Of a DNA stretch of 64,000 bases, positions 299 to 59,566 are shown piece by piece. A program made the position numbers and the translations under genes. Source of the stretch: Antedon mediterranea (lineage: Eukaryota; Animalia; Echinodermata); NCBI RefSeq assembly GCF_964355755.1, contig NC_092672.1, positions 2,976,001-3,040,000 of the forward strand. The letters run 5' to 3'. Each line of letters begins with the position of its first letter. Within the stretch, counting starts at the first letter, position 1. Below the pieces are notes generated by a model. It did no database searches. It saw nothing but the letters and a program-made list of their open reading frames with translations, and was not told the origin of the DNA.

Positions 299-7732
<7,434 letters not shown>

Positions 7733-12131: not shown

Positions 12132-12173
12132 AGGTTCCGATGCCACTAATGTACTGTAACATTTTCTAAAATT

Positions 12174-12885: not shown

Positions 12886-13141
12886 ATTTCCACTAGGACG
12901 CAAGACAATGACGTATAAAGCGCACCGCAAGTATTGCCCAATGACGCTTAACGCGATGGTGGATGATTGGTTCTTGTGCGTTGTGCTTGCGCCCTTAAGC
13001 TTGGCAACGCAAGGACGTAACGCAACGTCAGTGATTTGACCAATCACAAGCGATTGATTATTCGAACAGTGGCTTGTCATTGGTCAACTCGTTTGCGTTG
13101 CGCGTACGTCCTTGCATGGCGTCTCCTGTGGGAACCACGCT
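12886..13141. mobile_element. MITE family A (Harbinger-like), diverged
   Basis: ttccactaggacgcaa...tgaccaatcacaagcga...gtgggaaccacgct followed by tta. Confidence 0.65.
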
Positions 13142-14832: not shown

Positions 14833-25152
<10,320 letters not shown>

Positions 25153-34620: not shown

Positions 34621-34800
34621 TAGACTTGCCCCAAGTCTGTATTTATTGTCTTTTTTTTATATTTATTTGTTTTTATCTCGACCGCGATTTTTCTCTGAAA
34701 ATATCCAAACTCAAGTAATACACGTATGAAACGCCATATGTGCAAAAATATTTATATTTTTACTAATATTAAGACAAAACTCCGTCTGGAGCCCAGACTA
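34621..34800. mobile_element. 180-bp non-autonomous DNA transposon with 9-bp TSD, inside a pseudogene exon
   Basis: TSD GCATACAGA (34612-34620, 34801-34809); ends TAGACT...AGACTA; the intact paralog shows the empty site. Confidence 0.85.
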
Positions 34801-35115
34801 GCATACAGAGGCAGAAAGGCAATAGCTACACCCCATGACACGTTAGAAAGACAACCTGCAAGCGCCCGTTTTTCAGGCGGAAACATTTCCATTAAAAGCA
34901 CGAATGATGGAACATTTACACACTGAAAATAATACAAACGGTATTAATTATGGTAGAAAACGGAGCTATAAGTTTTAGTTATAATATAATGCACTGATTC
35001 TAGAAAATAATGCCCTACAGCATTCAATGTGAAGGTTTGAAATGAAAGTCTGAAAGGATACATAGAGTTCTGCTTTAGAGTTCTTGTGGCGTCATGTTTT
35101 TTAGCTGCCAACTAA

Positions 35116-35247
35116 TTCTTAGTTCCCACTAGAGACTCAACGCAAGTTCGACCAATCACAAGCGATGGAATATTCGAACTGTAGCTTGTCATTGATCAAC
35201 TCGCTTGGTCTATGTCCTTGCGTATTCCTCCTAGTGGGAATCAAGCT
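35116..35247. mobile_element. MITE family A, diverged
   Basis: ttagttcccactag...ctagtgggaatcaagct followed by taa. Confidence 0.7.
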
Positions 35248-36099
35248 TAAATCGTGGGGTTAAGCTAACTCATCATTGGTCAGATGTTTTGCCCTACTAT
35301 GACGTAATTTGTACTTCATACTAAGTACATTTGAGTATACTTGGGAAAAAAAATCGCAAGTAATTCATCTGAACAATTACTCAACTCCCCGACGCAAAGC
35401 TACTCCACAGTAGTAGAATATAATTCATCATTCAAAAACTTATTTAATTTTGAACGTCATTTGACACCACCTATATAAAAATTAATGGCTTAATATTGTT
35501 TAACCGCTAAACTGACCTTCTAACGCTTGAGACGATGAAATTATACAAGTATAATTATATTCCTTTTTCTTAATTACGTAGGCTACAATTTACAAACCTG
35601 CAAAATCGGAAATGCTGAAATAAACATTAATGCCGATTTTTGGTCTACAGTGTTAAAACTCACCCAACCATGACCACGTTTTGCTTATCAATTATTTTCA
35701 ACTTCAACGTGAGTAGGCAAATTTTGTGTAAATTAATCAACAAATTGAAAAAAAAAACGAAGAAAGAAAAGAAAAATTATTAACAAGAAATATATTATAA
35801 ACATACCTGCTCTTCAATGGCAGTAACAAACCATACAACAGCGAATGAATAGAAAGTCAATGCTATTCCAGATACAGCAAGCAACAAATAAGATGCTAGA
35901 AAAACATTTTTTCTCCAGAAATAATCTGAGGCTATCCCCGATATTATGGATCCAACGAGAACACCACAGTACACCGACACAACGGTGTTTGCCAATAATT
36001 TCTTGTCACATACTAAATCAAGCTATAAACAAAATTGTTGATTCATTATATCAAAAACTTTTAATTTTGTCTTTAAAAATTCCCATTTTATTTTACATA

Positions 36100-36376
36100 A
36101 GAGACCAATTTACACAGACGAGCGGTGTAACGGAAAACGGAAAACCGCGTAGCTTGTCGCGCGTAAAATCTGTATCTATATCCTGAGCAGAAACCGCCGC
36201 CCGTCCGCTCCGTGTGTGTAATTTGGCCTTGATACTATTACGCAGAAACGCGTTGGTAGAACGAGAGAAGAGAGAGAAGATCAGTATTCTGTCTCAGTGT
36301 CCCCTACGGATTCGTACGTTGTGTGTAAATGGTCATAAAGAATAGCAAAGATTCTATTTGTCTGTGTATTGGCCTC
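36100..36376. mobile_element. Harbinger-like MITE(s), ggccaatttacacagacg family
   Basis: agaccaatttacacagacgagcgg...tgtgtaatttggcct plus a second right-arm fragment; related to 22140-22316. Confidence 0.6.
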
Positions 36377-36965
36377 AATAAACATTATGATGTATGGCGT
36401 GTTCTGGCACCATGGAGCGGACGTTTCAGCTCAGGATAGATACATATTCCTACGGGCTTGTCGGGCGGATCATTAATTTATGAATTTAAGTATCTCATTG
36501 TGTTTATTTGTATCTGTGTATCCCTGCGTAGCACACTTAAATAAGGAATAAAACAAATAAAGAATAAATGGAACCATCTTTCTATTATTACTATAATGGT
36601 AATTTCGAACTGACTGGAAATCGAATTCTATAGATGGAGACAAAGCAGATTAATTTTGAGAGTTCTAGGCCTAATGGCAGCAAATTAGCGAAATCTGTTT
36701 ATCTGTAGACTTACTACAAAGAATCTAACCTCATTGACCACTGTTGATTCTCCGTTGTTCAACATGTACTCATGTACATTCGGACAGCCTATCGTTTCAT
36801 TCGTCAACGTACCATTGTATATTCCATATATCAAACAGCTCTCGTATTCAACTATAATATCACTGTGTTCCTTACTTACGAAATAGCTTCTGATTTACTT
36901 AAACTCATAATAGTTTTCAGAAATGTGATGAAGATGAAAGCCACGATGTGAAGTGCATGTACCAT

Positions 36966-38330
36966 TTATTTATTTTATTTATTCAATTTCCAGGTATACA
37001 GACAACAACATAAACAAACGAAGTGTGGATGGAGTACCATGTGGATTGCCAACAGTGGAAGCACTATCAAAGTGGCTCTCCAATACTCCAAACCACATAC
37101 ATAAATCACATAAAAATTGAAGACACACATAAACTTTAAAATATATAAAATACAGATCAAAAGATCATAAATATGAAAACTAAAAAATGACATAAATAGT
37201 AAAAATTCAAAACAAAAAAGGCAAAAACTAATTGAGCAATCACCAATTATAAGAAATAATTGTAATTACACAAAGAAATGTACAATTTAAAGTTCAGTAA
37301 TAGTTGAATGAAGAGAATTTTTAAATTGGCTGAAGCTAAATAATAATCGGTCTTTGATGGGGTCAGGGATATTTTGCCAAATACGTGGAAACTGATTGAA
37401 TAACGAGAATTTTAGACAGTTGGTTCTTGCAAATTTGTGTTTAAAAATAACTTTTTCAGGGTGTCAGGGTTAAAATCAATATGACCATAAAAACACTTAA
37501 CTACAAAAATAATACTGAGATACTTTAATCTCTGGTCGATCGAAGGCAACTTTAACCTAAGTAATCGCATCTCGTAACCACCAGGAACACATAACTTGGT
37601 GACTCGACGAAGGGATTTATTAATAGCAGTAATGTGCTGCTTTTGATGTGGAACCCAAACGGGGGCAGCATATTCCAGTATTGGTCTATACATAACCCAT
37701 TAAAAAGACGAAGCATAATATCCGAGTCATTTACTGACACAAAGCGTTTAATAAACCCAAGAATTTGGAGCGATTTAGTAGAGACGGCATTAACATGCTT
37801 GGACCTAGAGGTCAGAAAAGAAATGGATACCAAGGTATTTGTGGGAGGAAACAGGAGAGAGTTCAACAGAACGGATACTATAAAAATTGTGGATGGGATT
37901 TCTCCTACGTGTAATATGAAGAACCTAGCACTTAGCGGCATTCAACTTCATGGCATTGTTTTCACACCACTCATCTATGCGATTTAAATCATTTTGGAGA
38001 GAAACCACATCAACATTAGAGCATATTGGCCGAAATATGACTGTATCGTCAGCATACTGCCTGAGTTTGGAGATGACAGACATTGGAAGGTCAAAAACAA
38101 ACGCATTAAATAGGATGGGGCCCAAAACAGAGCCCTGTGGAACCCCGGAATTGACATCATTCCATTCGGACACCTGACCATTAATGAGGACATGTTGCTG
38201 CCGACCTGAAAGAAATGAATCTATCCAGCCTCTAGCATGTGCCCACACACTCCGAAATCATGGAGTTTATGAAGAAGCTTAGAGTGGCTGACGCGATCAA
38301 ACGCCTTTTCCCAGTCCAGAAAAATAGCAT
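36966..38330 (-). mobile_element. 5'-truncated, frameshifted non-LTR retrotransposon (CR1/L2/Jockey group RT)
   Basis: RT motifs DWKKAFDRVSH-like, WIDSFLSGRQQ, GVPQGSVLGPILF, QYADDT, RPILEYAAPVW across several frames; (AAAT)n-like tail at 36966-36985; inserted at CAT in pseudogene exon 1. Confidence 0.9.
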
Positions 38331-39093
38331 CATAGTCCCATATACACATACTACCAACAGCAACGTCAAGTGATATCTTCCCCATGGTTTAAGACTTCTT
38401 AAAATGTCGTCAACATCCATCTATATGATGAATATCGTGTATTTTAGTGATATTTTAAAATTGTTCTACTGCAGTTACTGCAGTCATAACTACATTTTAA
38501 TGTTTGTTTTTAATGTTGGTTCGATTTAATTCATTGGATGGACCGTGCAGAAAGGAGGCTTTTTGAATAGCGCGCGAACAAACGTACAAGCTCTCTCGTT
38601 TCCCTCTTTCTCTCTCCCTAATTTAGAAAATAGATTACTAATGTAACTACTACTAGGCCTACCTTAGACTTTTCAGCTGCTACGTTTTAGTACTTCTTGC
38701 GTTCGTCTCAAAATGTTTACCCTCTATACCCTTTGGAATCGAATGCTATATTGGCTTACGTCTGTGTCATCATGATGTATATAAATGAGGATATGAAATA
38801 TAATGAGCTAATAATATTTAATATTCAAAGTTAAATGTCTTGTGTACTAGTTACTACTCGCAATACATGTAGTTAACCAAATGGTTGTGTGCGTTTTTTT
38901 ATGACCATCCAATATTTTTATTATTTTTAGAATCACACAGGCTCAGATAACGATGTAACGATCTGTATCTTCAATAGGCCTCCATAGTTTTTACTTTATC
39001 ATATGCCTGTATTTTATTAATGGCAAACGTCTATTTTGACAATCGAATGATGAGTACAATTATGTGTGTAAAATCCTTATATAGGCTTTCTAA

Positions 39094-39258
39094 AGCTTGG
39101 TTCCCACTAGAACGTAACGCAACGCAAGTGAATTGACCAATCACAAGCGATGGCTTATTCGCTTTTGATTGCTAACTGTCTATAACTTCGCTTGTCATTG
39201 GTTAAAACGCTTGCGTTGCGTTTACGTCCTTGCGTTACGTTCTAGTGGGAACCAAGCT
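39094..39258. mobile_element. MITE family A (PIF/Harbinger-like), intact copy
   Basis: Perfect TIR AGCTTGGTTCCCACTAGAACGTAACGCAA with TAA TSD (39091-93, 39259-61). Confidence 0.9.
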
Positions 39259-39609
39259 TAACACTGGTACACTTTTTATTAGATTAGAATCTATTTTAAG
39301 ATTGAGGGCGCTCTGTCTAAATTTTCGTATTTTATTATTGTGTCATCGATCATTTTGGAAAAACCACGAGCTCATCTCTCTCACCCTCAGGACTAGCTTT
39401 TTTGTAAGAAGTGCAGAAATCACAATTTATTAGCTTGCTTTATTACGTAGTTTTAAGTTTATCATTATGTATTTATTCAATCTGTTTCGGTTATCTTTAA
39501 TTAGAGCCAGTGCCTGACCTAGGTTGTCTTCCTCTTTAGCTTAGTTACCAGACTGTCACTCTCTGCGTACACACTACACTACCAGCCAGGAGAGCGGAGG
39601 TCAGGTAGG

Positions 39610-39929
39610 TAAAGAGACTGTTTATGTTTACTTATTAACCTAGGAGGACAATTAAGTCTCTTCGGTGTAACTACACACTCATCGTTTGTACTCACCTAAT
39701 CCTTTCTAGGCTGGTACGTGATGGGTATAGTTTGTGTCCTTCTTTGGTTGTGTCTTCGCTTCAAGAGATCGAGTTTTGCCTCTCGCACATTCAACGCCCG
39801 GGGCTGGTCGTGACGTATCTCGCCACTGGCCAGTCCCAGGGCCGGATTCGGGGGTTGAGTGCGCGTAGGCCCGGCGATTGGCTGTGACGTATAGATGACG
39901 TAACCAATAGCCAATCGCCAGGCACTACA
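39610..39929 (-). repeat. 3' LTR
   Basis: Base-for-base identical to 51600-51919 on visual comparison; reads TGTAGTG...CTCTTTA on the minus strand. Confidence 0.97.
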
Positions 39930-39950
39930 ATCCTCCTCGTTTTATTTTCT
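39930..39950 (-). other. Polypurine tract
   Basis: Minus strand AGAAAATAAACGAGGAGGAT directly abuts the TGT start of the 3' LTR. Confidence 0.75.
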
Positions 39951-40039
39951 TTGTTTCCTGCCCCCCTGACTATTCTCTGACTGGTCTTCCCAAGGGAGAC
40001 AGGCGCATTTTAGTTCACCGTCAGTGTCTGACATTGCTG

Positions 40040-40210
40040 TTCAATTTGATATTGGATTTCAAGTTCATTTGGAAGTTCTTTTGATTTCCAGTTCCTTTTA
40101 AAGTTCATTTGATTTCAAGTTCATATGAAAGTTCCTTTGATTTCCAGTTCCTTTTAAAGTTCATTTGATAGTTCCTTTGAAAGTGCATTTTGATTTTAAG
40201 TTCATTTCTC
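40040..40210. repeat. Short degenerate tandem repeats in the element 3' UTR
   Basis: About ten copies of (a/c)agttc(a/c)ttt(g/t), alternating with gatttc. Confidence 0.75.
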
Positions 40211-41267
40211 CATGGTGGGTCCTCCACTCCTTCCTCTTCTTTCTTTTATTTTTTTTTTTTTTTTTATTTTTTTTTTTTTTAACATGTAACACAACGGGGG
40301 GCACAGCCCCAACAAGAACAGGATTTGAAAAACGGAACACCAGAACGTCAAGGTGGGGGAATTACCCCAACAATTTGAACATATGACAGCCAACAGGGGA
40401 CTAAAGAGTCCCGAATAAAAAATGTTGCCATAACAATCGAACAATGGGCAATACATACGAACAGTTGAAATAAAGAAACAAGAAAATCAAATCCCTTCAA
40501 GCCATGTGGCATAGGGTATACATCGGGTTGCTGCCCGGCACCGTGTTCCAGGGAACATTGGCACCTGACAGCCCCCCGGAAGAGAAAAAATCTGAGGAAC
40601 ACCGTTCTAGGGGTACAGAATTACAGATTTGAGAAAAGAAGGCACAAGCCTATGGGGATTGGCAAAAATTTAGCAAACAACAGTAAAATTTTGTTCTGGA
40701 ATTCCAGTATATAGGGCTGACTGTTTGCGTGTATACAAAATATTCTAATTAGATGAGAGAAATCGTCAAAAAGAGACCGCACTGACAATCGTAATTGAAA
40801 CAAGGGACTTACGGTCCCAGCTAAATAAGTAGAGGACATGTTGGACCTCAAATTTTGGGGTGGGAAGAGGATTTGCTCTTCGCCAACTTTTGGGCGTGCG
40901 GTGACTAAGGACAGACAATTGTCCTGGGGTACAAAAATGTTATACGCAAGTACACCAAGAAGGGGTGTACTGTATTCAAGTGATTTAGAACGGTGTGGTA
41001 TATAATAATCGTTTTGAAGAATTGAGTCCTGTTAAAGAATTGAGTTCTTTTACTCTCTTTTCATACTAACCGTAGCGCCCCTGGGCGGTGCGGCCAGTCA
41101 TGTTGATTTCATTGGTCCATTTTTTTTTTTTTTTTTCTTTTAAATGTGGTTCCCATACTAACCGTAGCGCCCCTGGGCGGTGCGGCCAGTGATGAAACTG
41201 TGTTGATTTCATTGGTCCAATTTTTTAATTTTTTTTTTTTTTTTTTTTTATATAGTCCAGTGGCACT

Positions 41268-42992
41268 TCAGGCGTCCAACTCCTCTGCGAGGGTCAGCTG
41301 CTCGATGCACACGCGGTGCATGCGGGCGGCCGCCTCTCGCAGGGCGCTGCTGGAGGATGACAAGGCTGCTGCTGCCAGTCGTTGGTTCGCAGTATACGCC
41401 TCTCTCAGCAGTCGGCGGGCTTCCTCATCTAAAGCTTCCGCTGCCCGCTGCGGTGTTGTGGAGGACTGTTGAGGGAGCTTCGGAGATCCCATACTAGCCG
41501 TAGCGCCCCTGGGCGGTGCGGCCAGTGATGAAGATTCCGGTGCCGGTTCCATTGGTCCTGGAGCTCTCGACGATGGCGGAGGGCATGAGGGCAGGCCTCC
41601 GTACTTTTCGTTGAGTTCATGAAGTCGTTTCGGGTTAGCCCTCATGGCCTCTGCCAGCAGTGGGCACAGACAGAAAGGGTGCAGCATCACCAGGGCGGTG
41701 ACCTGATTTCTGATGTCCCTTTCCATTGACGGCGCCTTCCAATTTACTGCCTGAGCTGTAAGCGTGAGTTGACGCAACCACTTGTTGCCCAGGCCGCAGG
41801 CTCCGGGCCTCAGGAAGTACTTTCTCAAAAAATCAAAAGCCTTCCTCAGAGTTGAGAGACCATCTGGAAGCAGGGGGATCAGTTCTTGAAGGTATCTCCA
41901 GGCTGTCCTCATCTTATGGTTGTCTTGATGGTGTACATACTTTGCCACAACCTCTGGAGCATGCACATTGAGGTGGTCCATTGCCGAGCCTTGCAGACCG
42001 CAAGCTGGCACTGGGCACGCATACCCCGTTCCCTTCTTTGCTGCGGGAGTGGCAGGGTGCCGCGAGAAATCTGATTGTTCTCCTGCTGACGGGTCCACGA
42101 CCTCCGCCGGAACGACGTAAGGTTTACGCCTTGATGATTTTGATCGGGGCGAAGGTTTAGTCCGCTCTGCCGCCCTGGCAGCAGGCCGACCCCTAGCGTC
42201 CCTTGATGACTTTGACCGGGCCGAAGGTTTAGTCCGCTCTGCCGCCCTGGCAGCAGGCCGACCCCTAGCGTCTCCGGACGGGTTCTTCAGCCTGAAGTCC
42301 TGACAAATAAAAGTTGTTTTGCTTGCCTCGTCTCTTAGGAAACGCGTCATGAGCTCCCCCACCGTCTCTGCCCTAGGCGGAAACGGATGGATAGAACAGA
42401 TGATGCGGTCCGGTCCGATTGTGGATACCACCTTCGATTGAAGCAGAACACCCTTCCTGGCTAGGCTTTGAATCTCACAGCGAGCATCCGACGAAAGGTC
42501 CGACCCAGGAGGCCGCGGAACGCCAGCCACCTCTATATTGGCACGAAACATCTCTGCATCCTCTGGTGATAAGGCCACCATACCATCGAACGCACCCCTG
42601 CCACTCACTCCCGAGATCCGCCGGATCCACAAGACTTGGCCCAGCGCGACTCGAGGCTGTGAAGGGGACAACATGGATGGTGATGGGGGGCGGAGAGGCG
42701 ACATCGGATCTTCACGCTCCATCTCCTTTTCTGCTTGCTGGGGGAACGACTCTGCCCCTGGGGGCAAGAGAAGCGCCGCCACAGCCGGTATGTCAGTGGG
42801 GACCGAGTCCTGCACTTCCCCATGGGGTCCGTGCCGGGGCTCGTCCTCGGTTGTACCTACCACTACCCCAGGGGGTAGTGGAGTGGTCGCCCTCTCGGAG
42901 GCCCGGGCAGGGGCCGGCAGAGAAGGGAACTCCCTCTCCACTAGCTCTGCCCAGTCCATTGGCGTCACAGCTTCTGAGTAACTCTTTTCCAT
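41268..42992 (-). CDS. Retrotransposon ORF3, unknown function (574 aa from ATG 42992; 588 aa from 43034)
   Basis: Long uninterrupted ORF after pol on the same strand. Pro-rich, 24-aa basic tandem duplication, CPVPAC-x8-HLNVH, C-terminal Ala/Arg/Glu helix. Confidence 0.8.
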   Translation of the reverse strand: MEKSYSEAVTPMDWAELVEREFPSLPAPARASERATTPLPPGVVVGTTEDEPRHGPHGEVQDSVPTDIPAVAALLLPPGAESFPQQAEKEMEREDPMSPLRPPSPSMLSPSQPRVALGQVLWIRRISGVSGRGAFDGMVALSPEDAEMFRANIEVAGVPRPPGSDLSSDARCEIQSLARKGVLLQSKVVSTIGPDRIICSIHPFPPRAETVGELMTRFLRDEASKTTFICQDFRLKNPSGDARGRPAARAAERTKPSARSKSSRDARGRPAARAAERTKPSPRSKSSRRKPYVVPAEVVDPSAGEQSDFSRHPATPAAKKGTGYACPVPACGLQGSAMDHLNVHAPEVVAKYVHHQDNHKMRTAWRYLQELIPLLPDGLSTLRKAFDFLRKYFLRPGACGLGNKWLRQLTLTAQAVNWKAPSMERDIRNQVTALVMLHPFCLCPLLAEAMRANPKRLHELNEKYGGLPSCPPPSSRAPGPMEPAPESSSLAAPPRGATASMGSPKLPQQSSTTPQRAAEALDEEARRLLREAYTANQRLAAAALSSSSSALREAAARMHRVCIEQLTLAEELDA

Positions 42993-43089
42993 ATTCGATC
43001 TGAAAGACATAATGAAAAGCACCTTTCCAATCATGGTGAATGTGAATTACAGTGTTAGTCAGCCCGGGGTGAGACGTTTGAATGCGGAT

Positions 43090-46000
43090 CTACTCGGCAC
43101 ACTTGGTACATTTAAATCGATCGATATCGATAGCTTCCGCTGGAGTAATGTTGACGCATGCTCCATGGTACCATTCACCGCACAGATCGCACTCGATCAT
43201 AAAACGCCCCTCCCATGGCTTCCTACAAGTACAGTAAATGCCGTCATCTTCGGCATCCCCGTCGGGGTCGGAATTCGTCAGATCAAGGTTGGTGATCCAA
43301 TTTGGCAAATCCCGATCCCGGCAGAGCTTCAGTTTATCGTGGTGGATTACAAATACTTTATTACGGAGGCGTACACGGAAGGCGTACGGGGCCAGCACCT
43401 CAGTGACTACCCCCGGACCCTTCCATGGCGCATTCAATTTCTTGTTTTTCCCCTTTATTTTGGTCTGGTCGAACACATAGACTTTGTCCCCAACTGCGTA
43501 TGTACGCTCTAGTAGCTTAAGGTCGTATTGATACTTATTGCGCTTTTGCATTGATTTTAGATGTGTTCTTGCAATATCGTGCGCTAACTTCATATTTTCT
43601 ACTAGGCCAGTGGTGTATGAATATGGATCAGTAATTGTTGTGCCCCCTGAAGAGCCGAACATGAGGTCGGGTGGTGTCGATACCTCCCTGCCCAGCATCA
43701 TCAGGTTTGGTGTAGATTGGGTACTTCGGCATACCGTGGCCCTAATTGCACTCGTTATCTGGGGCAGATATTTATCCCAGTCCTTTTGTTGTTTTCCCAC
43801 AAAACACCGGACCGCATTCATCACAGTCAGATTGTAACGTTCTACCTGACCGTTAGCTGAAGGACGGTACGGCGTGGTGTGGGTCTTATTAATGAGGAGA
43901 ATCTTGCAGAGCTCCCCGAAGAGATCGCTCTCAAAATTCGGACCCTGGTCCGAGTGCAATTGCAGCGGCATACCAAATCTGGAGAAGAATTCCCTTACCA
44001 GTACCTCGGCAGTCAATTGTGCAGTCTGCCGGGGTACCGGGTAGGCCTCTACCCACTTTGTAAATTGATCCACTACCATCAATACATACAGATTCCCACT
44101 ACTGGACTGAGGAAATGGTCCTGCAAAGTCTATGTGAACCCTTTCCATTGGGGCTCCCGAGTGGTAATTAATCTGTTCCGAGCGGCCTTTCTTATTCCCC
44201 CTCTTGTGGCTGTTACATATGGGACAGCCTATGACATATCTTTCGATATCCCCGGCCATCCCAAACCAGTAGTATCGTTGTTTAAGACGGAGCTTAGTCC
44301 GTTTGATACCTTGGTGGGCGGCCGATGGGAGATCATGATAAGCTTGCATTGTTGTTTTAATCAATGACTTCGGAAGAACAAGAAGGTCCTCCTCCCCCTG
44401 TTTATCTTGAATGAATAACACCCCGTCTCGCAAGCACATCCTTTCCTTACTCAACCAATAATGTTTTGTTGCCGGGCTAGTAGCGAAAAGCTCATTTGCC
44501 GAAGGCAGCGCGTCACCCTTAAACCAGAGTAACACGGGCCCCAGCTCCTGGTCTTTCCCCTGAGCCTCTTGGATTTCCTGGGTAGAGAAACCCCAATGAG
44601 ATTGCTCCGCCCTTTCCGTGGTTAGTTGATGAACATGTTGGGAGGGCAGGAAAGGCTGCGAGATAGGTTGATTTTGATGTGCGTGCACACCCGTCAGCGG
44701 AATGACGTCATCAACCTGGTCGATGAACGCCCCCCATTGCTGGTGCGCACGTACACAGTACTTACACCCCTTGCAAGGTAAATCAGATAATTTCACCCCA
44801 TGTTTGTAATGATTAGCCATTTCAGGTGCCCGTGACAATGCATCGGCATTGACATGTTTTTTACCAGGGCGGTGTTCTACTATCATTACATACTGGCTAA
44901 GTTCTTCTATCCAGCGGGCCAGTTGCCCTTGGGGTTCCTTGAACCTCAGAAGCCAAGTCAGGCTACTGTGGTCGGTGCGAACCTTAAATGGTTTACCCAG
45001 CAAGTAGTGTCTAAATTGACGTGTGAATTTCACAATCGCCAACAGTTCTTTACGGGTGGTACAGTAGCGTTGCTGCTCTGATGTTAATGCTAAACTAGCA
45101 TAAGCAATCACACGCTCCTGACCCCCTTGTAATTGGGACAATTCACCTCCGATTGCCTGATCTGATGCATCGGTATCAAGGACGAACATGTCATCAGGAT
45201 TCGGAAGTGACAAAACTGGTGGTTGTGTCAATTTAGATTTAATTGAGTGAAATGCATCTATTTGAGGTTTGTCCCATCGGAACTCCCCCTTCTTTGCAAC
45301 TGCATAAAGAGGTCTTGTTAATTCGGCAAAGTGGGGAATGAATGCCCTATGGTAATTTGCTAGGCCAAGGAAGCGTTGAGCCTCCTTGTAGTTCTTAAGA
45401 TCAGGCCACCCACACACTGCCGCGATATCGGTATCGGACATCTCGAGAGTGTTGCGGGAGACCATACGGCCCAGAAATTCCACTTTCCTCTGGAAAAATA
45501 GACATTTCTTTGGTTTTAGTTTCAGATTATATTGTCGGAACCGACCTAGGGCCTCCCTTAAGTTATTGCTGTGGTCTTCAAATGATTTGCCCAGGATAAC
45601 CACGTCGTCGAGGAAAGCCAGAGCAGTCTGCCAATTTAGACCACGCAAAACCATATTGATGACCCTAGAGAAGGTTGCCGGACTATTACACAGGCCAAAG
45701 GGCATTTTTACAAACTCGAACAGGCCATATTTGGTGACGAAAGCGGTCTTTTTGCGATCGTCGGCATTGAGGTTTATTTGCCAATAACCAGAAATGGCGT
45801 CCAATTTAGAGAACCATTGATTACCCGACAATGTGTCGAGGCAATCCTCTAAAATTGGTAATGGATATACATCCTTTACCGTGATGTTATTTAAAGCCCT
45901 ATAGTCTATGCAAAATCTGACGTTTCCATCCCTTTTCCGGACTAGGACTGGGGCGGAGGACCATTCAGAATTGGACGGCTGAATGATACCCCCCTCCAGC

Positions 46001-47016
46001 ATTTTATCCAGTTCTTTGCGTTCTTCATCGGCAAAGTGTAACGGGGTACGGCGAAGTCGGTGTCTCACTGGTGCTGCATCAGACGTATCTACCCGGTGAT
46101 CAATATTAGGGACCTCCCCAATATCGAATTGATCCCTGGCAAACACATCTGCGAACTCAGTAAGCATCTCCTTCACCACCCCTGCCTGATCTTCCGATAA
46201 ATTGGTAATAGAATTTTCATAAGTTGTACGCATGTGATGTGGCAATGCGTGTGTGGCCGGAGAGGTTTCCCCCGGATGGGTGAAAACTTCCCCAGCTACA
46301 CAGGATTCTATTTCAGATGCAAACCCAATTTCTAAACCTGCTTTGACAGTTACGTATTTGTTGGTTGTATTGACCATGCAGATCACAGGCGATTCACCTG
46401 CGGTGTGCACAGTTCTAGGAATTGTTAGGTTATTGTGGCCATGAGGTTCTACAATGTAGTCATGCAATTTGGTATCTAACTGACAGGAAACATAGGCTAT
46501 TGATGTAGGTGGTATCACACGCCGCTTGCATGTGATTATTCTGCAGCTAGAGGGCGTTGAGGGCGCCATACCATTTTGTATTAATGGGACAGCAACCCCA
46601 CCGACCTTTAACAGCATTTCGCCTATGTTGACATCTGCGTTTGTGCCCCTCATGAAATCCAAACCTAGTAGCATTTCGTCTTCAATCGGTGCAACATAGA
46701 CATAAGTGGGGTAGATGTTTGGCCCAATTTTGAGTTGCACCGGACCTATTTTTCGCCCTTCCATCGAACTACCCTTACCCGCCATGAATAATTTAATAGT
46801 ACCCACGGTGGGCGGAGTAGGGGTAATTGAATGGTATAAGCTATCAGATATAATAGATACAGTCGCTCCACAGTCGACAACAGCGTCAACTTTAACGGAT
46901 GCGACCGTAACTTTAGTGTAGAGTAATGAATTAGATTTCACTCGCTGTACAATAAGTGATTCAGTTGGGTCGCACTCTGGAGTGAACAATTTGGAGTCGA
47001 CCCCTAGTCGTTTAAA
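43090..47016 (-). CDS. pol: Pol polyprotein: protease, RT, RNase H, integrase, C-terminal PHD finger
   Basis: VVDCGAT protease; RFCIDYRALN, MPFGL, FLDD RT; LDTDAS/ELLAI/RTDH RNase H; H-H-C-C plus HIDFAGP, SDQG, VER integrase; C4HC3 PHD. The frame is open up to the slippery site at 47016. Confidence 0.97.
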   Translation of the reverse strand, partial: FKRLGVDSKLFTPECDPTESLIVQRVKSNSLLYTKVTVASVKVDAVVDCGATVSIISDSLYHSITPTPPTVGTIKLFMAGKGSSMEGRKIGPVQLKIGPNIYPTYVYVAPIEDEMLLGLDFMRGTNADVNIGEMLLKVGGVAVPLIQNGMAPSTPSSCRIITCKRRVIPPTSIAYVSCQLDTKLHDYIVEPHGHNNLTIPRTVHTAGESPVICMVNTTNKYVTVKAGLEIGFASEIESCVAGEVFTHPGETSPATHALPHHMRTTYENSITNLSEDQAGVVKEMLTEFADVFARDQFDIGEVPNIDHRVDTSDAAPVRHRLRRTPLHFADEERKELDKMLEGGIIQPSNSEWSSAPVLVRKRDGNVRFCIDYRALNNITVKDVYPLPILEDCLDTLSGNQWFSKLDAISGYWQINLNADDRKKTAFVTKYGLFEFVKMPFGLCNSPATFSRVINMVLRGLNWQTALAFLDDVVILGKSFEDHSNNLREALGRFRQYNLKLKPKKCLFFQRKVEFLGRMVSRNTLEMSDTDIAAVCGWPDLKNYKEAQRFLGLANYHRAFIPHFAELTRPLYAVAKKGEFRWDKPQIDAFHSIKSKLTQPPVLSLPNPDDMFVLDTDASDQAIGGELSQLQGGQERVIAYASLALTSEQQRYCTTRKELLAIVKFTRQFRHYLLGKPFKVRTDHSSLTWLLRFKEPQGQLARWIEELSQYVMIVEHRPGKKHVNADALSRAPEMANHYKHGVKLSDLPCKGCKYCVRAHQQWGAFIDQVDDVIPLTGVHAHQNQPISQPFLPSQHVHQLTTERAEQSHWGFSTQEIQEAQGKDQELGPVLLWFKGDALPSANELFATSPATKHYWLSKERMCLRDGVLFIQDKQGEEDLLVLPKSLIKTTMQAYHDLPSAAHQGIKRTKLRLKQRYYWFGMAGDIERYVIGCPICNSHKRGNKKGRSEQINYHSGAPMERVHIDFAGPFPQSSSGNLYVLMVVDQFTKWVEAYPVPRQTAQLTAEVLVREFFSRFGMPLQLHSDQGPNFESDLFGELCKILLINKTHTTPYRPSANGQVERYNLTVMNAVRCFVGKQQKDWDKYLPQITSAIRATVCRSTQSTPNLMMLGREVSTPPDLMFGSSGGTTITDPYSYTTGLVENMKLAHDIARTHLKSMQKRNKYQYDLKLLERTYAVGDKVYVFDQTKIKGKNKKLNAPWKGPGVVTEVLAPYAFRVRLRNKVFVIHHDKLKLCRDRDLPNWITNLDLTNSDPDGDAEDDGIYCTCRKPWEGRFMIECDLCGEWYHGACVNITPAEAIDIDRFKCTKCAE
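46962..47016 (-). promoter_or_regulatory. -1 programmed ribosomal frameshift signal
   Basis: U UUA AAC at 47016-47010 in the gag frame, 6-nt spacer, then stem GGGUCG-ACUC...GAGU-G-CGACCC; pol is in the -1 frame. Confidence 0.88.
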
Positions 47017-49214
47017 GAGTCTTCTTCATCTACATCGAATTCATGTTCGACTAGATTTAGCCTTCTGTTTTGCTTGAAGTTTGATTTATTATTATGTGGT
47101 CTATTTGAATTATTGGGAGTCTTGGTGGGGCATTCCCTTGCGAAATGACCCTCCTCACCGCAGGAGAAACAGCCGGCCCCTCTCTCTGGAGATCTACGTC
47201 GAGCCGGGGATGGTTGCCTCTCACGCGGCCTATCAAGGCGATCTAATACCTTGTCTAATTTCGAACAAAGGGCCGAGACCTGTTCTTGCAATTCGTTTAT
47301 TCGGGTGTTGGAAGCATGAACAGATTCCCGGTCCAGAGAACGATCTCGATATCGGGCACCATGGGGCGATTGCGGACGTGCAAAACGCACCACGCGCCGT
47401 TTATCCTCCCTTTTAGTTATTTCATTAATCCGCCCAAAGTCACCCTCAGCCTGCAAGTTGCACTCCTGAACACTAGGTTCTGGGTACACCTGGCAGACAG
47501 TGGATGGCTGGGGTGGAGTTTCTGGCAGATGTGTAGTTGGTGTTGAGGCCAATTTAGGTGTTATTATTGGTTCATCGTTGACACTCTGGTGCCATTCGAT
47601 AAGTCGGATAGCTTCAGGAATTGTTTTGGGGCGCTGCAGGCTAGCAAATTTGCCGCTTGGCCTATCAACACACCCACGACAAAACTTTAAAGCTGCCATT
47701 TCTTGGATCCAATGATTGGTGGCCCCTTCACCCCCTTGCGTTCTATACGCCTTGGCTGCGGCTTTAAGCACTCTGGCTCCCCACTCACGTAGGGACTCCA
47801 GGTCTTTTTGGAAAAGTTTTTCGAATTTTGCAGCCAGAAGAGATTGGTCTTGGGCGGAGCCAAAGTATTCGTTAAAACTAACGATGAGCCTCTCGTAAGA
47901 GACTGCACTACCATGCAAGGTCAGCAACGTTTGTAAGTACGCGGCTGCCTGGCCCCTCATGCTCATGTGGAAAGCTTCCTTGCGTTCGGCCCTAGACCAT
48001 CCATTAATCTGGGAAAATCCCTCAAATCTATCATGGAATATTCCCCAGTCGTCATCCCCACCGTGGAATTCTAGATGTTTTTGCGGCCTGAAAGGCTGTT
48101 GACCCCGATGATCACCGCGGCCCCACTCGTCCCGCAAGGGTAGGCGGTCAAGCCTATTCCTCTCGGGGCGAGGAGGTCGAAGGAATCGTCCGAGATCGTG
48201 CTCATAATTTTGATGATCATTTCTCCCACCATAATCACCCATCTGATAATTATCTCGGTTGATGTTTTGTAAGGGTAGTGGTGGTTGATTATAATTCATT
48301 CCAGTGGCGGAAGGATGACGAGGACGATAGCAATCGTTGTCCAGGTACCCCCGGTTGTAATTATCACCTCCGTACCCATGGTCACCTTGAGGGTAGGAAG
48401 GTCGAGTTCCCCATGAGGGGTCTCGGTTCTTATTTTGAGCAGTAGGGCGTTGAGGTAGGCCATGTTCAACAGCGGCATCCCCCCGTCCTACGTTGGTGTT
48501 ACAATTTATTTCTTTTTCTCGATCCGAATGATCGGGACGGTAGCCGTGTTCTACAGCTGGATAGCCATAAAAACCAGCCCCAACCCGGTCATAAGGATGG
48601 GCGTCTTCGTTTCCCCCAGCTCCCGTGCGAGCACGTGTACTAGGAGACGGTGAAGTATCCACCATGTGCACTCCAGAACGATCAAGAGATCTACCCCGAC
48701 CAGCAGCAACAGGGCCGCTGGTCGCAGTGTCACCCCTTCTCATTGGAGTACGCGGAAAAACCTCATCGCCACCCATATCGCCCGCCCGGTGGTTGTTGTG
48801 GAGCGTACGGGAATCTAGGTTGCTAGGCACGCTTGCCTGGTCTGCATAGCGTTGATCGCCTCCGGCCCCCGGATGCAAGGATGGGTCGCTCGGCAAAGGT
48901 GGTACGGGGGTGCAGGCCTGCTCGTGAGCTTGATCGTGCTCTCCCGAACCGTTACCCACATCTCCATACCCCCCAGTCGGCGGTCCCATTCTCACATACC
49001 GAGAGTTAATGGCATAGTCCATGTTAAAGGACAAAAAGTCGAACGAATTATCGCCGACTGCCCGTGCTAGATCTTGTGGGTTTGTGATATTCCCATAATT
49101 ATCCCTGTAGGCCCTGATTTTCTCGGCCAAGGGTGGGGGTAAACCCTGTGGGAAATCTTTCGCCCTACGGACAAAGTTGATCTTAAAAGGTATTGGTTCG
49201 ATGGTTTTTGGCAT
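47004..49214 (-). CDS. gag: Gag, 736 aa
   Basis: Capsid-like region (DWGIFHDRFE...NGWSRAER), coiled coil, zinc knuckle CFSCGEEGHFAREC; lies upstream of pol. Confidence 0.93.
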   Translation of the reverse strand: MPKTIEPIPFKINFVRRAKDFPQGLPPPLAEKIRAYRDNYGNITNPQDLARAVGDNSFDFLSFNMDYAINSRYVRMGPPTGGYGDVGNGSGEHDQAHEQACTPVPPLPSDPSLHPGAGGDQRYADQASVPSNLDSRTLHNNHRAGDMGGDEVFPRTPMRRGDTATSGPVAAGRGRSLDRSGVHMVDTSPSPSTRARTGAGGNEDAHPYDRVGAGFYGYPAVEHGYRPDHSDREKEINCNTNVGRGDAAVEHGLPQRPTAQNKNRDPSWGTRPSYPQGDHGYGGDNYNRGYLDNDCYRPRHPSATGMNYNQPPLPLQNINRDNYQMGDYGGRNDHQNYEHDLGRFLRPPRPERNRLDRLPLRDEWGRGDHRGQQPFRPQKHLEFHGGDDDWGIFHDRFEGFSQINGWSRAERKEAFHMSMRGQAAAYLQTLLTLHGSAVSYERLIVSFNEYFGSAQDQSLLAAKFEKLFQKDLESLREWGARVLKAAAKAYRTQGGEGATNHWIQEMAALKFCRGCVDRPSGKFASLQRPKTIPEAIRLIEWHQSVNDEPIITPKLASTPTTHLPETPPQPSTVCQVYPEPSVQECNLQAEGDFGRINEITKREDKRRVVRFARPQSPHGARYRDRSLDRESVHASNTRINELQEQVSALCSKLDKVLDRLDRPRERQPSPARRRSPERGAGCFSCGEEGHFARECPTKTPNNSNRPHNNKSNFKQNRRLNLVEHEFDVDEEDSLND

Positions 49215-51587
49215 CCCTGGAAGATAAGAAAAATCCTTCCCAATTAGTTTTATTCTTCATTTATAGGCCTGGTAAGTACTCCCGTCCCCCCGTGCATCCA
49301 ACCAGCGAGCGGAGGTAGCATCGGTCTGATGCTGTTTCGATGATTATTTTTGCGTCTCACTCGTTGGGTGCCCAGAGAGAACAGGGGTAGTACCAGCCCA
49401 ATACACACCTAGCGCTAATCACAGTTCAATTAAATATAATTACAATGTAAGGGTTACCTCCCCCCATCACAAAAATTTTAGCTAATTATGTGTACATATA
49501 ATGATTTATGGGCACTCACATTATGCCACGAAAATAAAATAAAAGGACTACACAAATAGTACAGGTTAATGAAAAGAATATATGATATACAAGGCATGTG
49601 ATAAGAGATACAGATCGTTACCAGATGTTATTGTAGCCAAGTGTCAATGACATGGACAAAACAAAACATTACAGATTACACACTGTGACAGTTAAGAATC
49701 GAAATTCATACAAGACATGTTGAAAAACAATCATGATAAGAAAAAGATCATACAAGAACATGCGAAAATAAATGAGACAAGACACGGAAAAAATTTTATT
49801 TTGAAAGAAAAAGGCATACAAGACATATAAAATAATTCTAGGCAAAAACCTAAGATAATCAATAAATAAATAAATATGCCTAAAGTATCAAAAAATAATA
49901 TTCGAACCAAAAATCAATAAATATAATAATAAAATAAATATAGGTACCGGCCTAGCCTGTACACTAAAAAATATTTCAATTTTAAAAAATCTATGCTAAA
50001 TAAAGACATTCTAAAATAATAACAATAAACAGGAATAATTAAGCCTATGCATAATTACCCAAAAAATAAAAATAATTCATGAAAATAATAGGTAGGAAAT
50101 TCCACTAGAATAACCACCTAATAAATAAAACATCGTCTAACTAAAACAATAAAAATTTACTAATAATTTTACGTCGAAAATAGTTCAATAAAAATAAAAT
50201 AAATCAATCGGAAAATAACTTAATTCCAAGCAATCAATATACACGAATGAATAAATAAATAAATAATAATCCTAATGTCATTTCCATCCAAGTGGGAGAG
50301 ACAAAATAACTATAATCTAACTACCCCGCGATAGCACAGGCCAGAAAATTCCAGCCCGTCTATCGTCAGGCCATAAATCAATCCAGACAATACACAGACC
50401 GGGAGACGAGCTCTCAGTTCTGCATAAAACTAAAATCTAAAAATAGTAAGGAGTATCCCTATATTATTCTACCAATCAGAATACAGTACTCACCTAACGT
50501 CATCATCGAAAGTCGTAAACAACTGTTGACCTCGTTGATGCAAGCAGCTATCCGCGAGGGTAGCAAGCGAATGCGTGCTCGCGATTGGCTAGCGATGAAT
50601 CACACGTGAGAAGACTGATAGGCAGAAAGTTGTTGTTTGACAAGGCGAACCGCTCAGGAATGGCGGCATTCTCAAAGCAACGGCAGTGTAGATAACTACT
50701 GTTTAACCCCGTTGTTCGTGAACACAAGTCGCCAAACCAGAGTCGGATTACCCTAACAAGCAACACCCTCCAATAACCTCGTTCTGTTGGTCGTAGGTTA
50801 TGGTAGTGTAATTTAAGGATTAAAAATAATGATAATAAAAATCGTGGATTTGAATAAGCTAATAAATAATCAAAATACGCGAGAGATGCCAACCACAAAA
50901 AATGGCGTCACTCACTAAAAAATTGTTTCGAAATTAAATTTAATATTTTTCCTACAAATTATAAATTTGCTAATTATTATGTTTTGTACATTTTTCCAAT
51001 AATATTCTGAATCACGGGCCAGACATATTCATTGTTCTGGAATCACGGGCCCAGTGCGTTAAACATACAATAAAAAACGCTGTTCCATGTTCACGTGCAT
51101 GGTATGTACGTAGCTTCGGCTAGGTCACGGGCCCAGGGCAGGGCCCAGCCACATCGCTACACACACTAATATCTTTTTCGGATCATTAGGAAATAAAAAA
51201 TGTACCTATCCGAAGAATCAGAGTACAAATGGGTCCCCCATAAATATACTGTCTGACAATTCGGATTACGGCACAAATCCAAGACGGAGAAATAATAATA
51301 TAATTTACTATAAACAACTCCCGACGGCTCGACCCCATCGATCGGACGAAACCTGCAGGCACGACAGCAGATTTCGGCCGCGAGACGGAGACGAGTCGTT
51401 GACGAGGTGGGAGATGGGTAGTGGGACGTGCTGCCCAGCAAACACAGAGGTCGTTCCTCCAGCATTGCCTCTGGGCAACACCACAGGGCGAAACGAGATG
51501 TGCGAACTAGAACAACACTCCTACCTTCCCAAACAGCTACACGCGGTTGACAGTGTCCCCCGCCGAGGCAAAAGGAACACCAGTTTA

Positions 51588-51598
51588 CCTCGTCGCCA
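51588..51598 (-). other. Primer binding site, probably tRNA-Ser(GCT)
   Basis: TGGCGACGAGG 1-2 nt inside the 5' LTR; complementary to the ...CCUCGUCGCCA 3' end I recall for metazoan tRNA-Ser(GCU). Confidence 0.75.
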
Positions 51599-51599
51599 T

Positions 51600-51919
51600 T
51601 AAAGAGACTGTTTATGTTTACTTATTAACCTAGGAGGACAATTAAGTCTCTTCGGTGTAACTACACACTCATCGTTTGTACTCACCTAATCCTTTCTAGG
51701 CTGGTACGTGATGGGTATAGTTTGTGTCCTTCTTTGGTTGTGTCTTCGCTTCAAGAGATCGAGTTTTGCCTCTCGCACATTCAACGCCCGGGGCTGGTCG
51801 TGACGTATCTCGCCACTGGCCAGTCCCAGGGCCGGATTCGGGGGTTGAGTGCGCGTAGGCCCGGCGATTGGCTGTGACGTATAGATGACGTAACCAATAG
51901 CCAATCGCCAGGCACTACA
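51600..51919 (-). repeat. 5' LTR with CCAAT boxes and CRE half-sites
   Basis: Identical to the 3' LTR; three CCAAT/ATTGG and three ACGTCA motifs in its first ~120 nt. Confidence 0.97.
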
Positions 51920-52539
51920 TAGGTGTGTGGAGAGAGGTTTACTATTATCTAGGGTAAGCCTATGCCTAGGCCTAGGTCTACTGGCACTAGCACTATCAAG
52001 TTTTTTCGCCCTTATTATCTAGGCCTATAATGTGATTATCAAACGCTATTACCTGTATCCAATTAAACTTAATTAATTCATGTAATAACTAATATATTGC
52101 TGATTGTAGATACCAGCATAATCAAAATGCATACCATGGTCCATACCACTTCACTTGCACAATATAAGTACTAAAATGTGCATTTATGTATTTGAAAAGG
52201 GATGCAATTTAAGCAGTGGCTGATCTGTGAAGTACAAAATAAGTATGTAGGCCTATGTATGTAATTGTTACCTGTCTTGTCTTATTTTGTAATGCAACCA
52301 AATTATCTAAGTTACCGCTCTGTATGTTATATTTTTTATACCGAAATAGATAATTTAATTAATTAAATAACTTCAGATTGTGCTGTTTCGAAGAAAAAAG
52401 GCAATCAAATAATATATACAGACGGTAGTATGCCTCAATAAATAGTGGCCTAAATAATAGTAGCCTAGTTCTGAATCAGAAACATAAAATATGTATATTC
52501 TATTTTCTCACAGATATCTGATTTTACAATAAAGTAAAG

Positions 52540-55500
52540 ATGGGCCTCGAAGATGGTCTATTGTCCGATGAGGGCGGGTTTGAATTTAGTGATCAGGATA
52601 TCCGCAAGTGTAAGTATTATAGTGAAATCCAGATTTTGGATGAATCTGACCACACATTTTTTACGTTAATTTCATTAATCTATTTAGTTCTGACATTTTG
52701 AAACAATTTTTTTTGGACTGTTTTAGGTTTGACATATTTCCATAAAAATTAAACAAAAACAGATAATGATATAATAATAAATACTTTGAAACATCTCTTT
52801 TACTTTGCAAATATTTTTTCATTTACAGTATAACTGCTTGCCACCTTCCAGTTTCCAACCCTTAACATATGAAATTATTAATACATAAACTATTAAAGTA
52901 AATATTCTTTGATATTGTTTAACCAGATATCAGGTTGATATTGATACCTTAATTTTAGTTTCTGAGTAAAAGATAAGTAAAAAGAAATCTAGGAATGATA
53001 ATAATTTTCTTTTACAAGAAATTAAATGAATGGGAAAATTCTTACTATGATTTAATGTTGTAAAACGTAGAACCTCAAATATAATGGAAAGCCTACATTA
53101 AGCTCTTTCTACACTATCAAACTAGTTTGACAAAAAAAGTGCCCAAATATGGTAGTGATATGCCCAAATATGGTAGTGATATGCCCAAATATGGTAGTGA
53201 TATGCCCAAATATGGTAGTGATATGCCCAAATATGGTAGTGATATGCCCAAATATGGTAGTGATATGCCCAAATATGGTAGTGATATGCCCAAATATGGT
53301 AGTGATAAGCCCAAATATGGTAGTGGTATGCCCAAATATGGTAGTGGTATGCCCAAATATGGTAGTGATATGCCCAAATATGGTAGTGATATGATATCAT
53401 CATGTCCATATCTCTATCTGCACATAATTTCTCTGAAATTGCAATTATTCTGTAGTCAGATTTTACTAACAAATTTTACAAAATCTGATGTGCCCATATG
53501 TGGACAAGATGATGTCATATCACTACCACATTTGCGAATATCACTACCATATTTGGAAATATCACTACCATATTTGGGCACATCACACCTTTTTTGTCAA
53601 ACTAGTTTGATAGTGTAGACAGAGCTTTAAGGAATAGTCAACATATCTGCAAAGGATAAATTCATGGTTTAATCATGGAGGTTTACGGGATGTGAAAAAA
53701 ATAAAAAAATAGTGGGATCGATAGATGAAATACAATTACTATTTTTTGCAGCATTTATCCGTAAGGTGTATGGCATCCTTTGTGCTCAACTTCTGCTTAC
53801 TATTGGTATTATGAGCATCTTTACATTCAGGCAAGTCAATACAGTTTATAATAATAATAAATAATGAATGATGTATTAATAATAATATTAATTGGTAAAC
53901 GCTTTACTAAAAATATAATTGATATTGTTTGATTCTACAGTGAAGGTGTGAAAAAATATGCATTTGAAAATTCTTGGCCTTTCTGGGTAGCTTTGTGAGT
54001 ATATTTAAATTACCCAATTTTATTATTTTTTGATTATTAATTAGTTTTTTGCAGGTTGTGGTAGCTTTTACAAATGTCTTATATAACTCAAAATATTTAC
54101 TATGTTTATTAAAAATTAATTTTTAAAATTAAAAATACAGTAGTATTTTACATACTTGACGCCATTCAAACATTTAAAGCTCTGTCCACATTATCAAACT
54201 ATTTGACAAAAATAGTGTGATGTGCCCAAATATGGTAGTGATATGACCAAATATTGTAGTGATATGACATGATGATGTGCCCAAATATGGTAGTGATATG
54301 ACCAAATATGGTAGTGATATGACATCATCATGTCCATATATGGGCACATCATCATTTTATGTCACATAAATGTTGATAGTGCAGACAGAGCTTTAAGGAG
54401 AAGAGATTTACTTCATTACTTCAGTACAGTACGTTTGTTTATTGGATATGTATGTTACTTGTATATTTTTTTATATGTACAATATATATTGAGACATTAT
54501 TTCTCGAATGCTGTATATGATGTTTTAAATTAACTTGGTGCTGGAAAACTAGTGGTACTGTACTTTTTTACTAGTGGTACTGTACTTTCTTACTAGTGGT
54601 ACTGTACTTTTTTACTAGTGGTACTGTACTTTCTTACTAGTGGTACTGTACTTTTTACTAGTGGTACTGTACTTTTTACTAGTGGTACTGTACTTTTTTA
54701 CTAGTGGTACTGTACTTTCTTACTAGTGGTACTGTACTTTCTTACTAGTGGTACTGTACTTTCTTACTAGTGGTACTGTACTTTTTTACTAGTGGTACTG
54801 TACTTTCTTACTAGTGGTACTGTACTTTTTTACTAGTGGTACTGTACTTTCTTACTAGTGGTACTGTACTTTCTTACTAGTGGTACTGTACTTTTTTACT
54901 AGTGGTACTGTACTTTTTTACTAGTGGTACTGTACTTTTTTACTAGTGGTACTGTACTTTCTTACTAGTGGTACTGTACTTTTTTACTAGTGGTACTGTA
55001 CTTTTTTACTAGTGGTACTGTACTTTTTTACTAGTGGTACTGTACTTTTTTACTAGTGGTACTGTACTTTTTACTAGTGGTACTGTACTTTTTTACTAGT
55101 GGTACTGTACTTTTTTACTAGTGGTACTGTACTTTCTTACTAGTGGTACTGTACTTTTTACTAGTGGTACTGTACTTTTTACTAGTGGTACTGTACTTTT
55201 TTACTAGTGGTACTGTACTTTTTTACTAGTGGTACTGTACTTTCTTACTAGTGGTACTGTACTTTCTTACTAGTGGTACTGTACTTTTTACTAGTGGTAC
55301 TGTACTTTTTTACTAGTGGTACTGTACTTTTTTACTAGTGGTACTGTACTTTTTACTAGTGGTACTGTACTTTCTTACTAGTGGTACTGTACTTTTTTAC
55401 TAGTGGTACTGTACTTTCTTACTAGTGGTACTGTACTTTTTTACTAGTGGTACTGTACTTTTTTACTAGTGGTACTGTACTTTTTTACTAGTGGTACTGT

Positions 55501-59166: not shown

Positions 59167-59566
59167 TTAACATATATTAGTTAACATATATTAACATATA
59201 TTAGTTAACATATATTAGTTAATATATATTAACATATATGTATTAGTTAACATATATTAGTTAAAATATATTAGTTAACATATATTAACATATATTAGTT
59301 AACATATATTAGTTAACATATATTAGTTAACATATATTAACATATATTAGTTAACATATATTAGTTAACATATATTAACATATATTAGTTAACATATATT
59401 AGTTAACATACATTAGTTAACATATATTAGTTAACATATATTAACATATATTAGTTAACATATATTAGTTAACATATATTAGTTAACATATATTAGTTAA
59501 CATATATTAGTTAACTTATATTAACATATATTAGTTAACATATATTAGTTAACATATATTAGTTAA
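59163..59566. repeat. AT-rich 14/10-bp tandem repeat starting at the TMBIM stop codon
   Basis: (TTAGTTAACATATA)n mixed with TTAACATATA. Confidence 0.95.

Follow-up and report, generated by a model that had tools for sequence, protein, structure and literature searches.

A Ty3/Gypsy retrotransposon of Antedon mediterranea with a predicted H3K4me3-type PHD finger at the end of its integrase

The stretch of Antedon mediterranea DNA analysed here (64,000 nucleotides of contig NC_092672.1; hereafter the window) contains a complete and intact minus-strand Ty3/Gypsy LTR retrotransposon of 12.3 kb at 39610-51919. Paired LTRs, a target-site duplication, a primer-binding site, a purine-rich tract and a gag gene followed by a pol gene of the order PR-RT-RNase H-integrase place it in this group (Table 1). 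The primer-binding site TGGCGACGAGG presumably matches the 3' end of tRNA-Ser, and a similar motif is also located upstream of gag in one relative (L016). Pol is in the -1 frame relative to gag, and the TTTAAAC heptamer in their overlap, a motif type which we take to be a frameshift heptamer, is likely the ribosomal frameshift site. The LTR pair is 100% identical across 320 bp. The element is very young and its insertion very recent. The AT-rich leader between 5' LTR and gag (49260-51590) is unusually long with 2.3 kb. Donor-like GGTGAGTAC motifs occur in the LTR and the leader, and spliced ORF3 or gag messages are possible.

The surrounding host DNA harbors SLC22-like transporter copies in tandem on the minus strand (28000-38420), and a LINE RT fragment (approximately 37000-38330) lies within the first exon of the copy that begins at 38420. 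The interval 6100-19100 contains two or more matrix-metalloproteinase genes (Peptidase_M10, hemopexin) in opposite orientation. A very abundant, MITE-like short palindromic repeat is found at 39090-39261, which is about 120-270 bp upstream of the Bax1-I first exon, and near 6905, 13000, 17800, 29013 and 35147. Minisatellites are located at 53140-53393 (21 bp), 54541-55900 (22 bp), 59068-59618 (14 bp), 62454-62713 (20 bp) and 12145-12416 (27 bp).

Table 1. Features of the retrotransposon and of the adjacent host genes (positions in the window).
Feature	Position	Strand	Remarks
5' LTR	51600..51919	-	320 bp; starts TG, final letters TA or TT according to the TSD length
3' LTR	39610..39929	-	320 bp
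Target-site duplication, left copy TAGG	39606..39609	.	5-bp TAGGT fits equally well
Target-site duplication, right copy	51920..51923	.	
Primer-binding site	51588..51598	-	
Purine-rich tract	39930..39960	-	adjoins 3' LTR
gag	47004..49214	-	736 aa from first Met; helix-hairpin-helix-like N-terminus, PNMA-like capsid, CCHC knuckle
TTTAAAC heptamer	47010..47016	-	within gag/pol overlap
pol	43090..47025	-	1311 aa stop to stop; PR-RT-RNase H-H2C2-integrase core-SH3-like CTD-PHD
Integrase core (rve)	43861..44154	-	aa 958-1055
C4HC3 PHD finger	43093..43245	-	Y1264, W1271, M1276, W1285 (putative cage) and D1280
ORF3	41268..43034	-	588 aa; CxxxxC..H..H zinc finger, helical region, predicted long terminal helix
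Bax1-I/Lifeguard first exon, non-coding	39374..39456	+	3' end mapped; 5' end inferred from 83-letter contig end
Bax1-I/Lifeguard exon 2	52514..52609	+	ATG 52540; spliced to exon at 53752
SLC22-like transporter copy, start	38340..38420	-	ATG 38420; divergent; interrupted by LINE fragment

Contigs from four runs cover the bin of the PHD finger, and in three runs contig coverage of the element is several-fold above that of the flank, a measure of depth and not of copy number. Among the 30 best-supported differences listed for pol (909 further rows follow), 26 are at third codon positions. The closest match to the element is an A. mediterranea protein with 95% identity (P0011).

The gene to the right of the element is on the plus strand and has a match to Bax1-I (Lifeguard-type), which stems from a short exon and is below the cut-off (E 0.0015). 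A contig of run X8 matches exon 2 exactly, between AG and GT, and continues in the exon at 53752. It carries 83 letters upstream of exon 2, the last 30 of which match 39427-39456 at 29 positions. This contig was read as a spliced transcript from exon-exact joins only. The transcript is thus spliced across the insertion point and the element is located in intron 1, which would have 743 bp when empty. The first donor lies 153 bp before the insertion, and the 5'-most base of the contig, which need not be the true start, about 236-240 bp before it. On the other side, the divergent SLC22-like start is 1.2 kb away. Contigs of runs X1 and X7 match from exactly 51920, and their 367 and 279 extra letters do not follow the LTR; likely these are empty alleles and the insertion is polymorphic. 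The 367 extra letters of the X1 contig would extend to the small repeat at 39243-39261. CpG observed/expected is 0.08-0.58 over 51920-54400, and this CpG-poor host gene body suggests constitutive expression.

The insertion is thus likely promoter-proximal in an expressed host gene. Estimated post hoc for one site, and with 51.7 kb of host DNA containing five or six gene starts, such a location has a probability by chance of roughly 3% (up to 300 bp downstream) to 12% (up to 500 bp on either side). The earlier note had proposed a promoter-seeking element. One promoter-proximal insertion agrees with this idea, a single site cannot show a bias, and binding by the PHD finger is predicted. Splitting of a splice donor at 39604 by the element was considered and rejected, because the X8 contig uses the donor at 39456/39457. 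The empty site (39590-39610 joined to 51920-51930) resembles the strong donor CAG/GTAGGT and may be an alternative first-exon donor; a first exon ending at 39604 was not seen in the one spliced contig. Counts of the CTAGG/TAGGC motif near the site are not clearly distinctive.

Downstream of pol, relatives of the element (loci L001-L058, e.g., L014:2691-5018 and L016:8546-10990) possess an ORF3 of 590-1095 aa in which a zinc finger is combined with a TatD nuclease domain at the C-terminus, including the TatD motifs DxHxHxD, GExGLD and ETDxP. Pfam TatD was above the cut-off in 12 of 18 scanned relative ORFs, and the TatD part is present in 19 of the 23 loci that extend 2.4 kb or more beyond the PHD finger. 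The window ORF3 has a helical tail at this position, and no TatD remnant was found elsewhere in the 64-kb window. A family profile made from 13 of the 23 long loci matches the window ORF3 with E 1e-8 at positions 263-539 of 807, that is in the zinc-finger and helical part only. As judged from this match, ORF3 is homologous to the zinc-finger/TatD ORF and the element is not an env-bearing Gypsy of the errantivirus type; a Pfam match to env was not found in the element. The C-terminal half of ORF3 was poorly modelled by single-sequence folding (pLDDT 53.6). In contigs of organism B, 40738 is joined directly to 43096, so that ORF3 is skipped while the PHD finger is kept through its last Cys. At the Gag N-terminus, a helix-hairpin-helix (HHH_3) is matched in seven of eight relatives (e.g., L014:5649, L027:228, L020:235), two of them above cut-off, and weakly in the window Gag (48900-49214). 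Such a motif is unusual for Gag and may have a role in DNA binding.

The peptide with which Pol had been reported to end is identical in every letter to the end of the minus-strand pol frame, and a single open frame spans integrase and PHD finger with neither a frameshift nor a stop between them. The finger is a complete C4HC3 domain, as had been claimed: Pfam PHD matches aa 1265-1309 of Pol (E 6e-8, 33 bits, cut-off 24) and none of the eight zinc ligands is missing (C1265, C1267, C1279, C1282, H1287, C1290, C1306, C1309). The closest solved structures by sequence are KDM7A (E 4e-15), PHF2 (E 1e-14), PHF8, PPS, BPTF and Cfp1. An AlphaFold model from 48 sequences reached a mean pLDDT of 89.9, with a linker between integrase and PHD finger that is predicted to be disordered. 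The modelled PHD finger superposes on BPTF, PPS, KDM7A, PHF2 and DIDO with 0.8-1.3 Å over 47-54 columns, and the proposed H3K4me3-type class agrees with both sequence and fold (about 1 Å rmsd). Y1264, W1271, M1276 and W1285 align with Y, Y, M and W of KDM7A and PHF2; we take these residues to form the cage, assuming the exact roles of their host counterparts. The cage residues listed in the earlier note are therefore all present. Going by the alignment, D1280 is presumably the acidic residue of the Arg2 pocket, and W1285 is at the position of the invariant Trp that separates the K4me3 pocket from that of Arg2. H3K4me3 readers also hold H3 Ala1 in a pocket of backbone carbonyls; here the superposition covered the domain as a whole.

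Protein homologue searches with the last 181 residues of pol yielded 169 proteins. In 81 of these the integrase tail is followed by a PHD finger, 78 have the tail only (many of them truncated), nine the PHD finger only and one neither. The named hosts are Antedon, Anneissia, Babylonia, Mytilus, Patella and Haliotis. The PHD fusion is a family trait in crinoids and molluscs. Its absence from other copies would have spoken against the earlier note, and it is present in P0011 and in dozens of diverged relatives. Mean identity among 76 non-redundant PHD-bearing relatives is approximately 41-42%; zinc ligands are conserved to 96-99%, compared to 11-29% for neighbouring positions. The cage M is found in 70 and the cage W in 72 of the 76, a conservation nearly equal to that of the zinc ligands, position I is aromatic in 70, and an acidic residue occupies the D1280 position in 62. 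Wall II is aromatic in 28 and Asp/Glu in 44. An aromatic and an Asp wall are the two solutions of BPTF and TAF3, according to the accessible text of PMC3241642 and the title of 2ri7. Because the query itself carried the cage residues, they were recounted in the 30 proteins whose integrase tail alone scores at least 88 bits (the search cut-off), with M in 28 and W in 29. The PHD finger ends at most 15 residues from the C-terminus in 63 of the 76 relatives, and the linker has a median length of 16 aa. In a metagenome scan, the tail was followed by a PHD finger in 52 of the best 80 of 463 matches; as the scan patterns contain M and W, cage residues were left uncounted there.

The identity of the PHD fingers co-varies with that of the integrase tails (Mantel rho 0.45, 0 of 2000 permutations, 48 rows). 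A quick integrase-tail tree was built on 115 columns, with 60 rows left out (29 short, 25 with a tail below 60 aa, six cut inside the PHD finger). In this tree, 44 of 100 rows are PHD-less, including close relatives; thus the PHD finger is dispensable in the wider group. Some of these rows may be broken copies. The PHD label changes six times on the tree versus 32.8 times for shuffles and is therefore clustered, through gains or losses. No chromodomain match was obtained for the 44 PHD-less relatives at E 0.001. A tree of 45 element and 35 non-element PHD fingers (54 columns) gave no resolution (16 changes, three starred branches). A homologue search with the PHD finger alone matched solely P0011, and a search of viral contigs revealed no relative. 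An integrase-tail/PHD fragment from Haliotis rubra (P0037) is annotated as 'inhibitor of growth protein 4-like', hence fragments of such elements are mis-annotated as host chromatin genes.

In H3K4me3-reading PHD fingers the cage is made up of aromatic residues, two to four in number, and this cage together with an invariant Trp marks H3K4me3 readers and is missing from H3K4me0 readers, as described in the available part of PMC3241642. An acidic cluster before the first Cys is given there as a feature of unmethylated-H3K4 readers (PMC3241642). An acidic stretch precedes the first Cys in this copy as well and counts against H3K4me3 reading, though it is not conserved, since the linker is net acidic in 25 and net basic in 18 of the 76 relatives. 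The acidic linker pointed out previously is therefore a property of this copy and not of the family. With an aromatic cage present, and with an acidic linker in only a minority of relatives, the finger does not fall among the unmethylated-H3K4 readers. Judged by its sequence class, its modelled fold and the family-wide conservation of the cage, it belongs to the H3K4me3-type readers.

Sequence class and conservation make it very probable that the PHD finger binds H3K4me2/3. That it also tethers the integration complex to H3K4me2/3 nucleosomes just downstream of active promoters is the reading which we favor, with moderate confidence, because site choice by the PHD finger is the weaker step. 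After frameshifting and protease processing, the PHD finger would stay on the integrase and hang from the SH3-like domain by a flexible linker. It would bind the H3 tail in the manner of the BPTF and PHF2 fingers, and several PHD copies per intasome might add avidity. New copies would then land at the 5' ends of germ-line-active genes, where transcription is easier. As reported in the accessible text of PMC8149907, HIV-1 integration moved to start sites when the ING2 PHD finger was fused to the integrase-binding domain of LEDGF, which suggests that the tethering geometry is workable. Promoter insertion is costly to the host, which argues against tethering.

Alternatively, the PHD finger might bind H3K4me2/3 without choosing the site, either by chromatin retention or as an allosteric switch of the integrase, for which RAG2 provides a precedent; a promoter bias would then originate from open DNA or a host factor. 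Conservation of the cage reflects selection for binding and not for targeting, PHD-less relatives exist within the same group, and a generic open-chromatin preference would yield the same Bax1-I intron site, the only insertion site known. However, any H3K4me3-dependent integration step would itself shift sites toward promoters, and a tethered PHD finger alone can retarget an integrase, at least in the available portion of PMC8149907. We regard this alternative as unlikely.

The finger might also recognize a methylated non-histone partner or an H3-mimic, of the host or of the element, and serve in assembly, import into the nucleus or counter-silencing, perhaps jointly with ORF3. The PHF2 PHD finger was solved with a VRK1 peptide (PMC8166343), and such structures of PHF2-type fingers with non-histone mimics (VRK1 entries) count against a reading of H3K4me3 only. 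In addition, PHD finger and zinc-finger/TatD ORF3 co-occur in most of the long loci. Yet most of the closest structures contain H3K4me3 as their ligand, and the PHD finger is kept in this copy, where ORF3 lacks TatD, and in the ORF3-skipping variant, which leaves this possibility quite improbable. That the finger is a functionless captured passenger, or an accident of assembly or annotation, as the treatment of some such proteins as host genes (P0037) might suggest, is hardly credible given the unbroken frame between identical LTRs, the contigs from four runs, the recurrence of the fusion among retrieved proteins and metagenome loci, and a residue-specific conservation that already contradicts a passenger.

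Tethering by the integrase PHD finger can be extended to a broader picture, to which we give about even chances. The element would represent an undescribed and widespread Gypsy clade of marine invertebrates with a self-encoded H3K4me2/3 reader on the integrase and insertion just downstream of active promoters. This would be the first integrase in nature to locate promoters through direct reading of a histone mark. Two cage types (aromatic and Asp) would tune the preferred methyl state, and the reader would be packaged with a DNA-binding helix-hairpin-helix in Gag and a nuclease of the zinc-finger/TatD type. To our knowledge, the targeting modules that LTR elements encode themselves (chromodomain, MBD) point away from genes, and those promoter-seeking elements that we are aware of are thought to borrow host factors. 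If true, the element would be a natural version of the engineered tethering experiment, and it would give rise to regulatory mutations at the starts of genes in echinoderms and molluscs. It would also permit a direct test of transposon PHD function, a question open since these domains were first noted. Since PHD-bearing and PHD-less sister families share genomes, this is testable from existing assemblies.

The earlier note could not say whether this architecture had been catalogued. PHD fingers of transposons and the idea that they read chromatin are already published, as the accessible parts of these sources show (PMC6673714; PMC2836005; 10.1101/2022.06.16.496473). Retrotransposon PHD fingers are described as widespread and were suggested to read histone marks (PMC6673714, available text). 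They are also noted on Chlamys elements. In the literature searched, with subscription journals, Repbase and GyDB outside its scope, we found no animal Gypsy clade with an integrase-terminal H3K4me3-type PHD finger or a TatD ORF3. The accessible texts of PMC11980090, 10.64898/2026.05.21.726589, PMC4255032, PMC3286476, PMC5408684, PMC5890265, PMC13524379, PMC6238403 and PMC8557442 contain nothing on an integrase-terminal PHD architecture; their supplements may list such elements. The finding is real and conserved and would be a variant of reader-guided integration, to which this window adds the promoter-proximal site and the link of the PHD clade with the TatD clade.

Several known systems share parts of this arrangement, as far as the available portions of the cited sources describe them. 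Ginger1-9_HM combines a Gypsy-type integrase with a C-terminal PHD finger, but it is a single family of DNA transposons with terminal inverted repeats and without RT, in which the PHD finger follows a Ulp1 domain (PMC2836005); the window element has direct LTRs and RT and is therefore no Ginger1. CopiaMBD is likewise an LTR element of animals with a captured chromatin reader and a proposed insertion bias, whereas it is a Copia element that reads methyl-CpG and is steered to methylated repeats (PMC6673714). In MLV integrase-BET tethering and in the ING2-PHD/LEDGF fusions, an integrase is also held to promoter chromatin by a reader domain; in those cases the reader belongs to the host or was engineered, while here it is encoded on the integrase itself (PMC8149907). 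Gypsy-7a_cRei of Chlamydomonas is an active Gypsy with a PHD finger in Gag-Pol and non-random insertions, but it resides in a green alga and its PHD finger is listed between RNase H and integrase (10.1101/2022.06.16.496473). It is one PHD-bearing Gypsy with mapped new insertions, which are enriched in intergenic regions; 25 of the 86 lie in UTRs, and the accessible text demonstrates no mechanism (10.1101/2022.06.16.496473). This intergenic enrichment counts against promoter tethering. The host readers KDM7A, PHF2, PHF8, BPTF, PPS/DIDO and Cfp1 share fold, zinc ligands and cage positions with the finger described here, which in contrast to theirs is fused to an integrase. Chromoviruses are Ty3/Gypsy elements with a C-terminal chromodomain on the integrase (summarized in PMC6673714). 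They resemble the window element in Ty3/Gypsy Pol order, in a histone reader at the extreme end of the integrase and in a proposed site choice. Nevertheless, judged by the PHD finger in place of the chromodomain, the element is not a chromovirus, and its predicted mark is an active one (H3K4me2/3), in contrast to the heterochromatic mark of chromoviruses. An integrase that reads H3K4me3 would thus be the active-chromatin counterpart of the chromovirus chromodomain.
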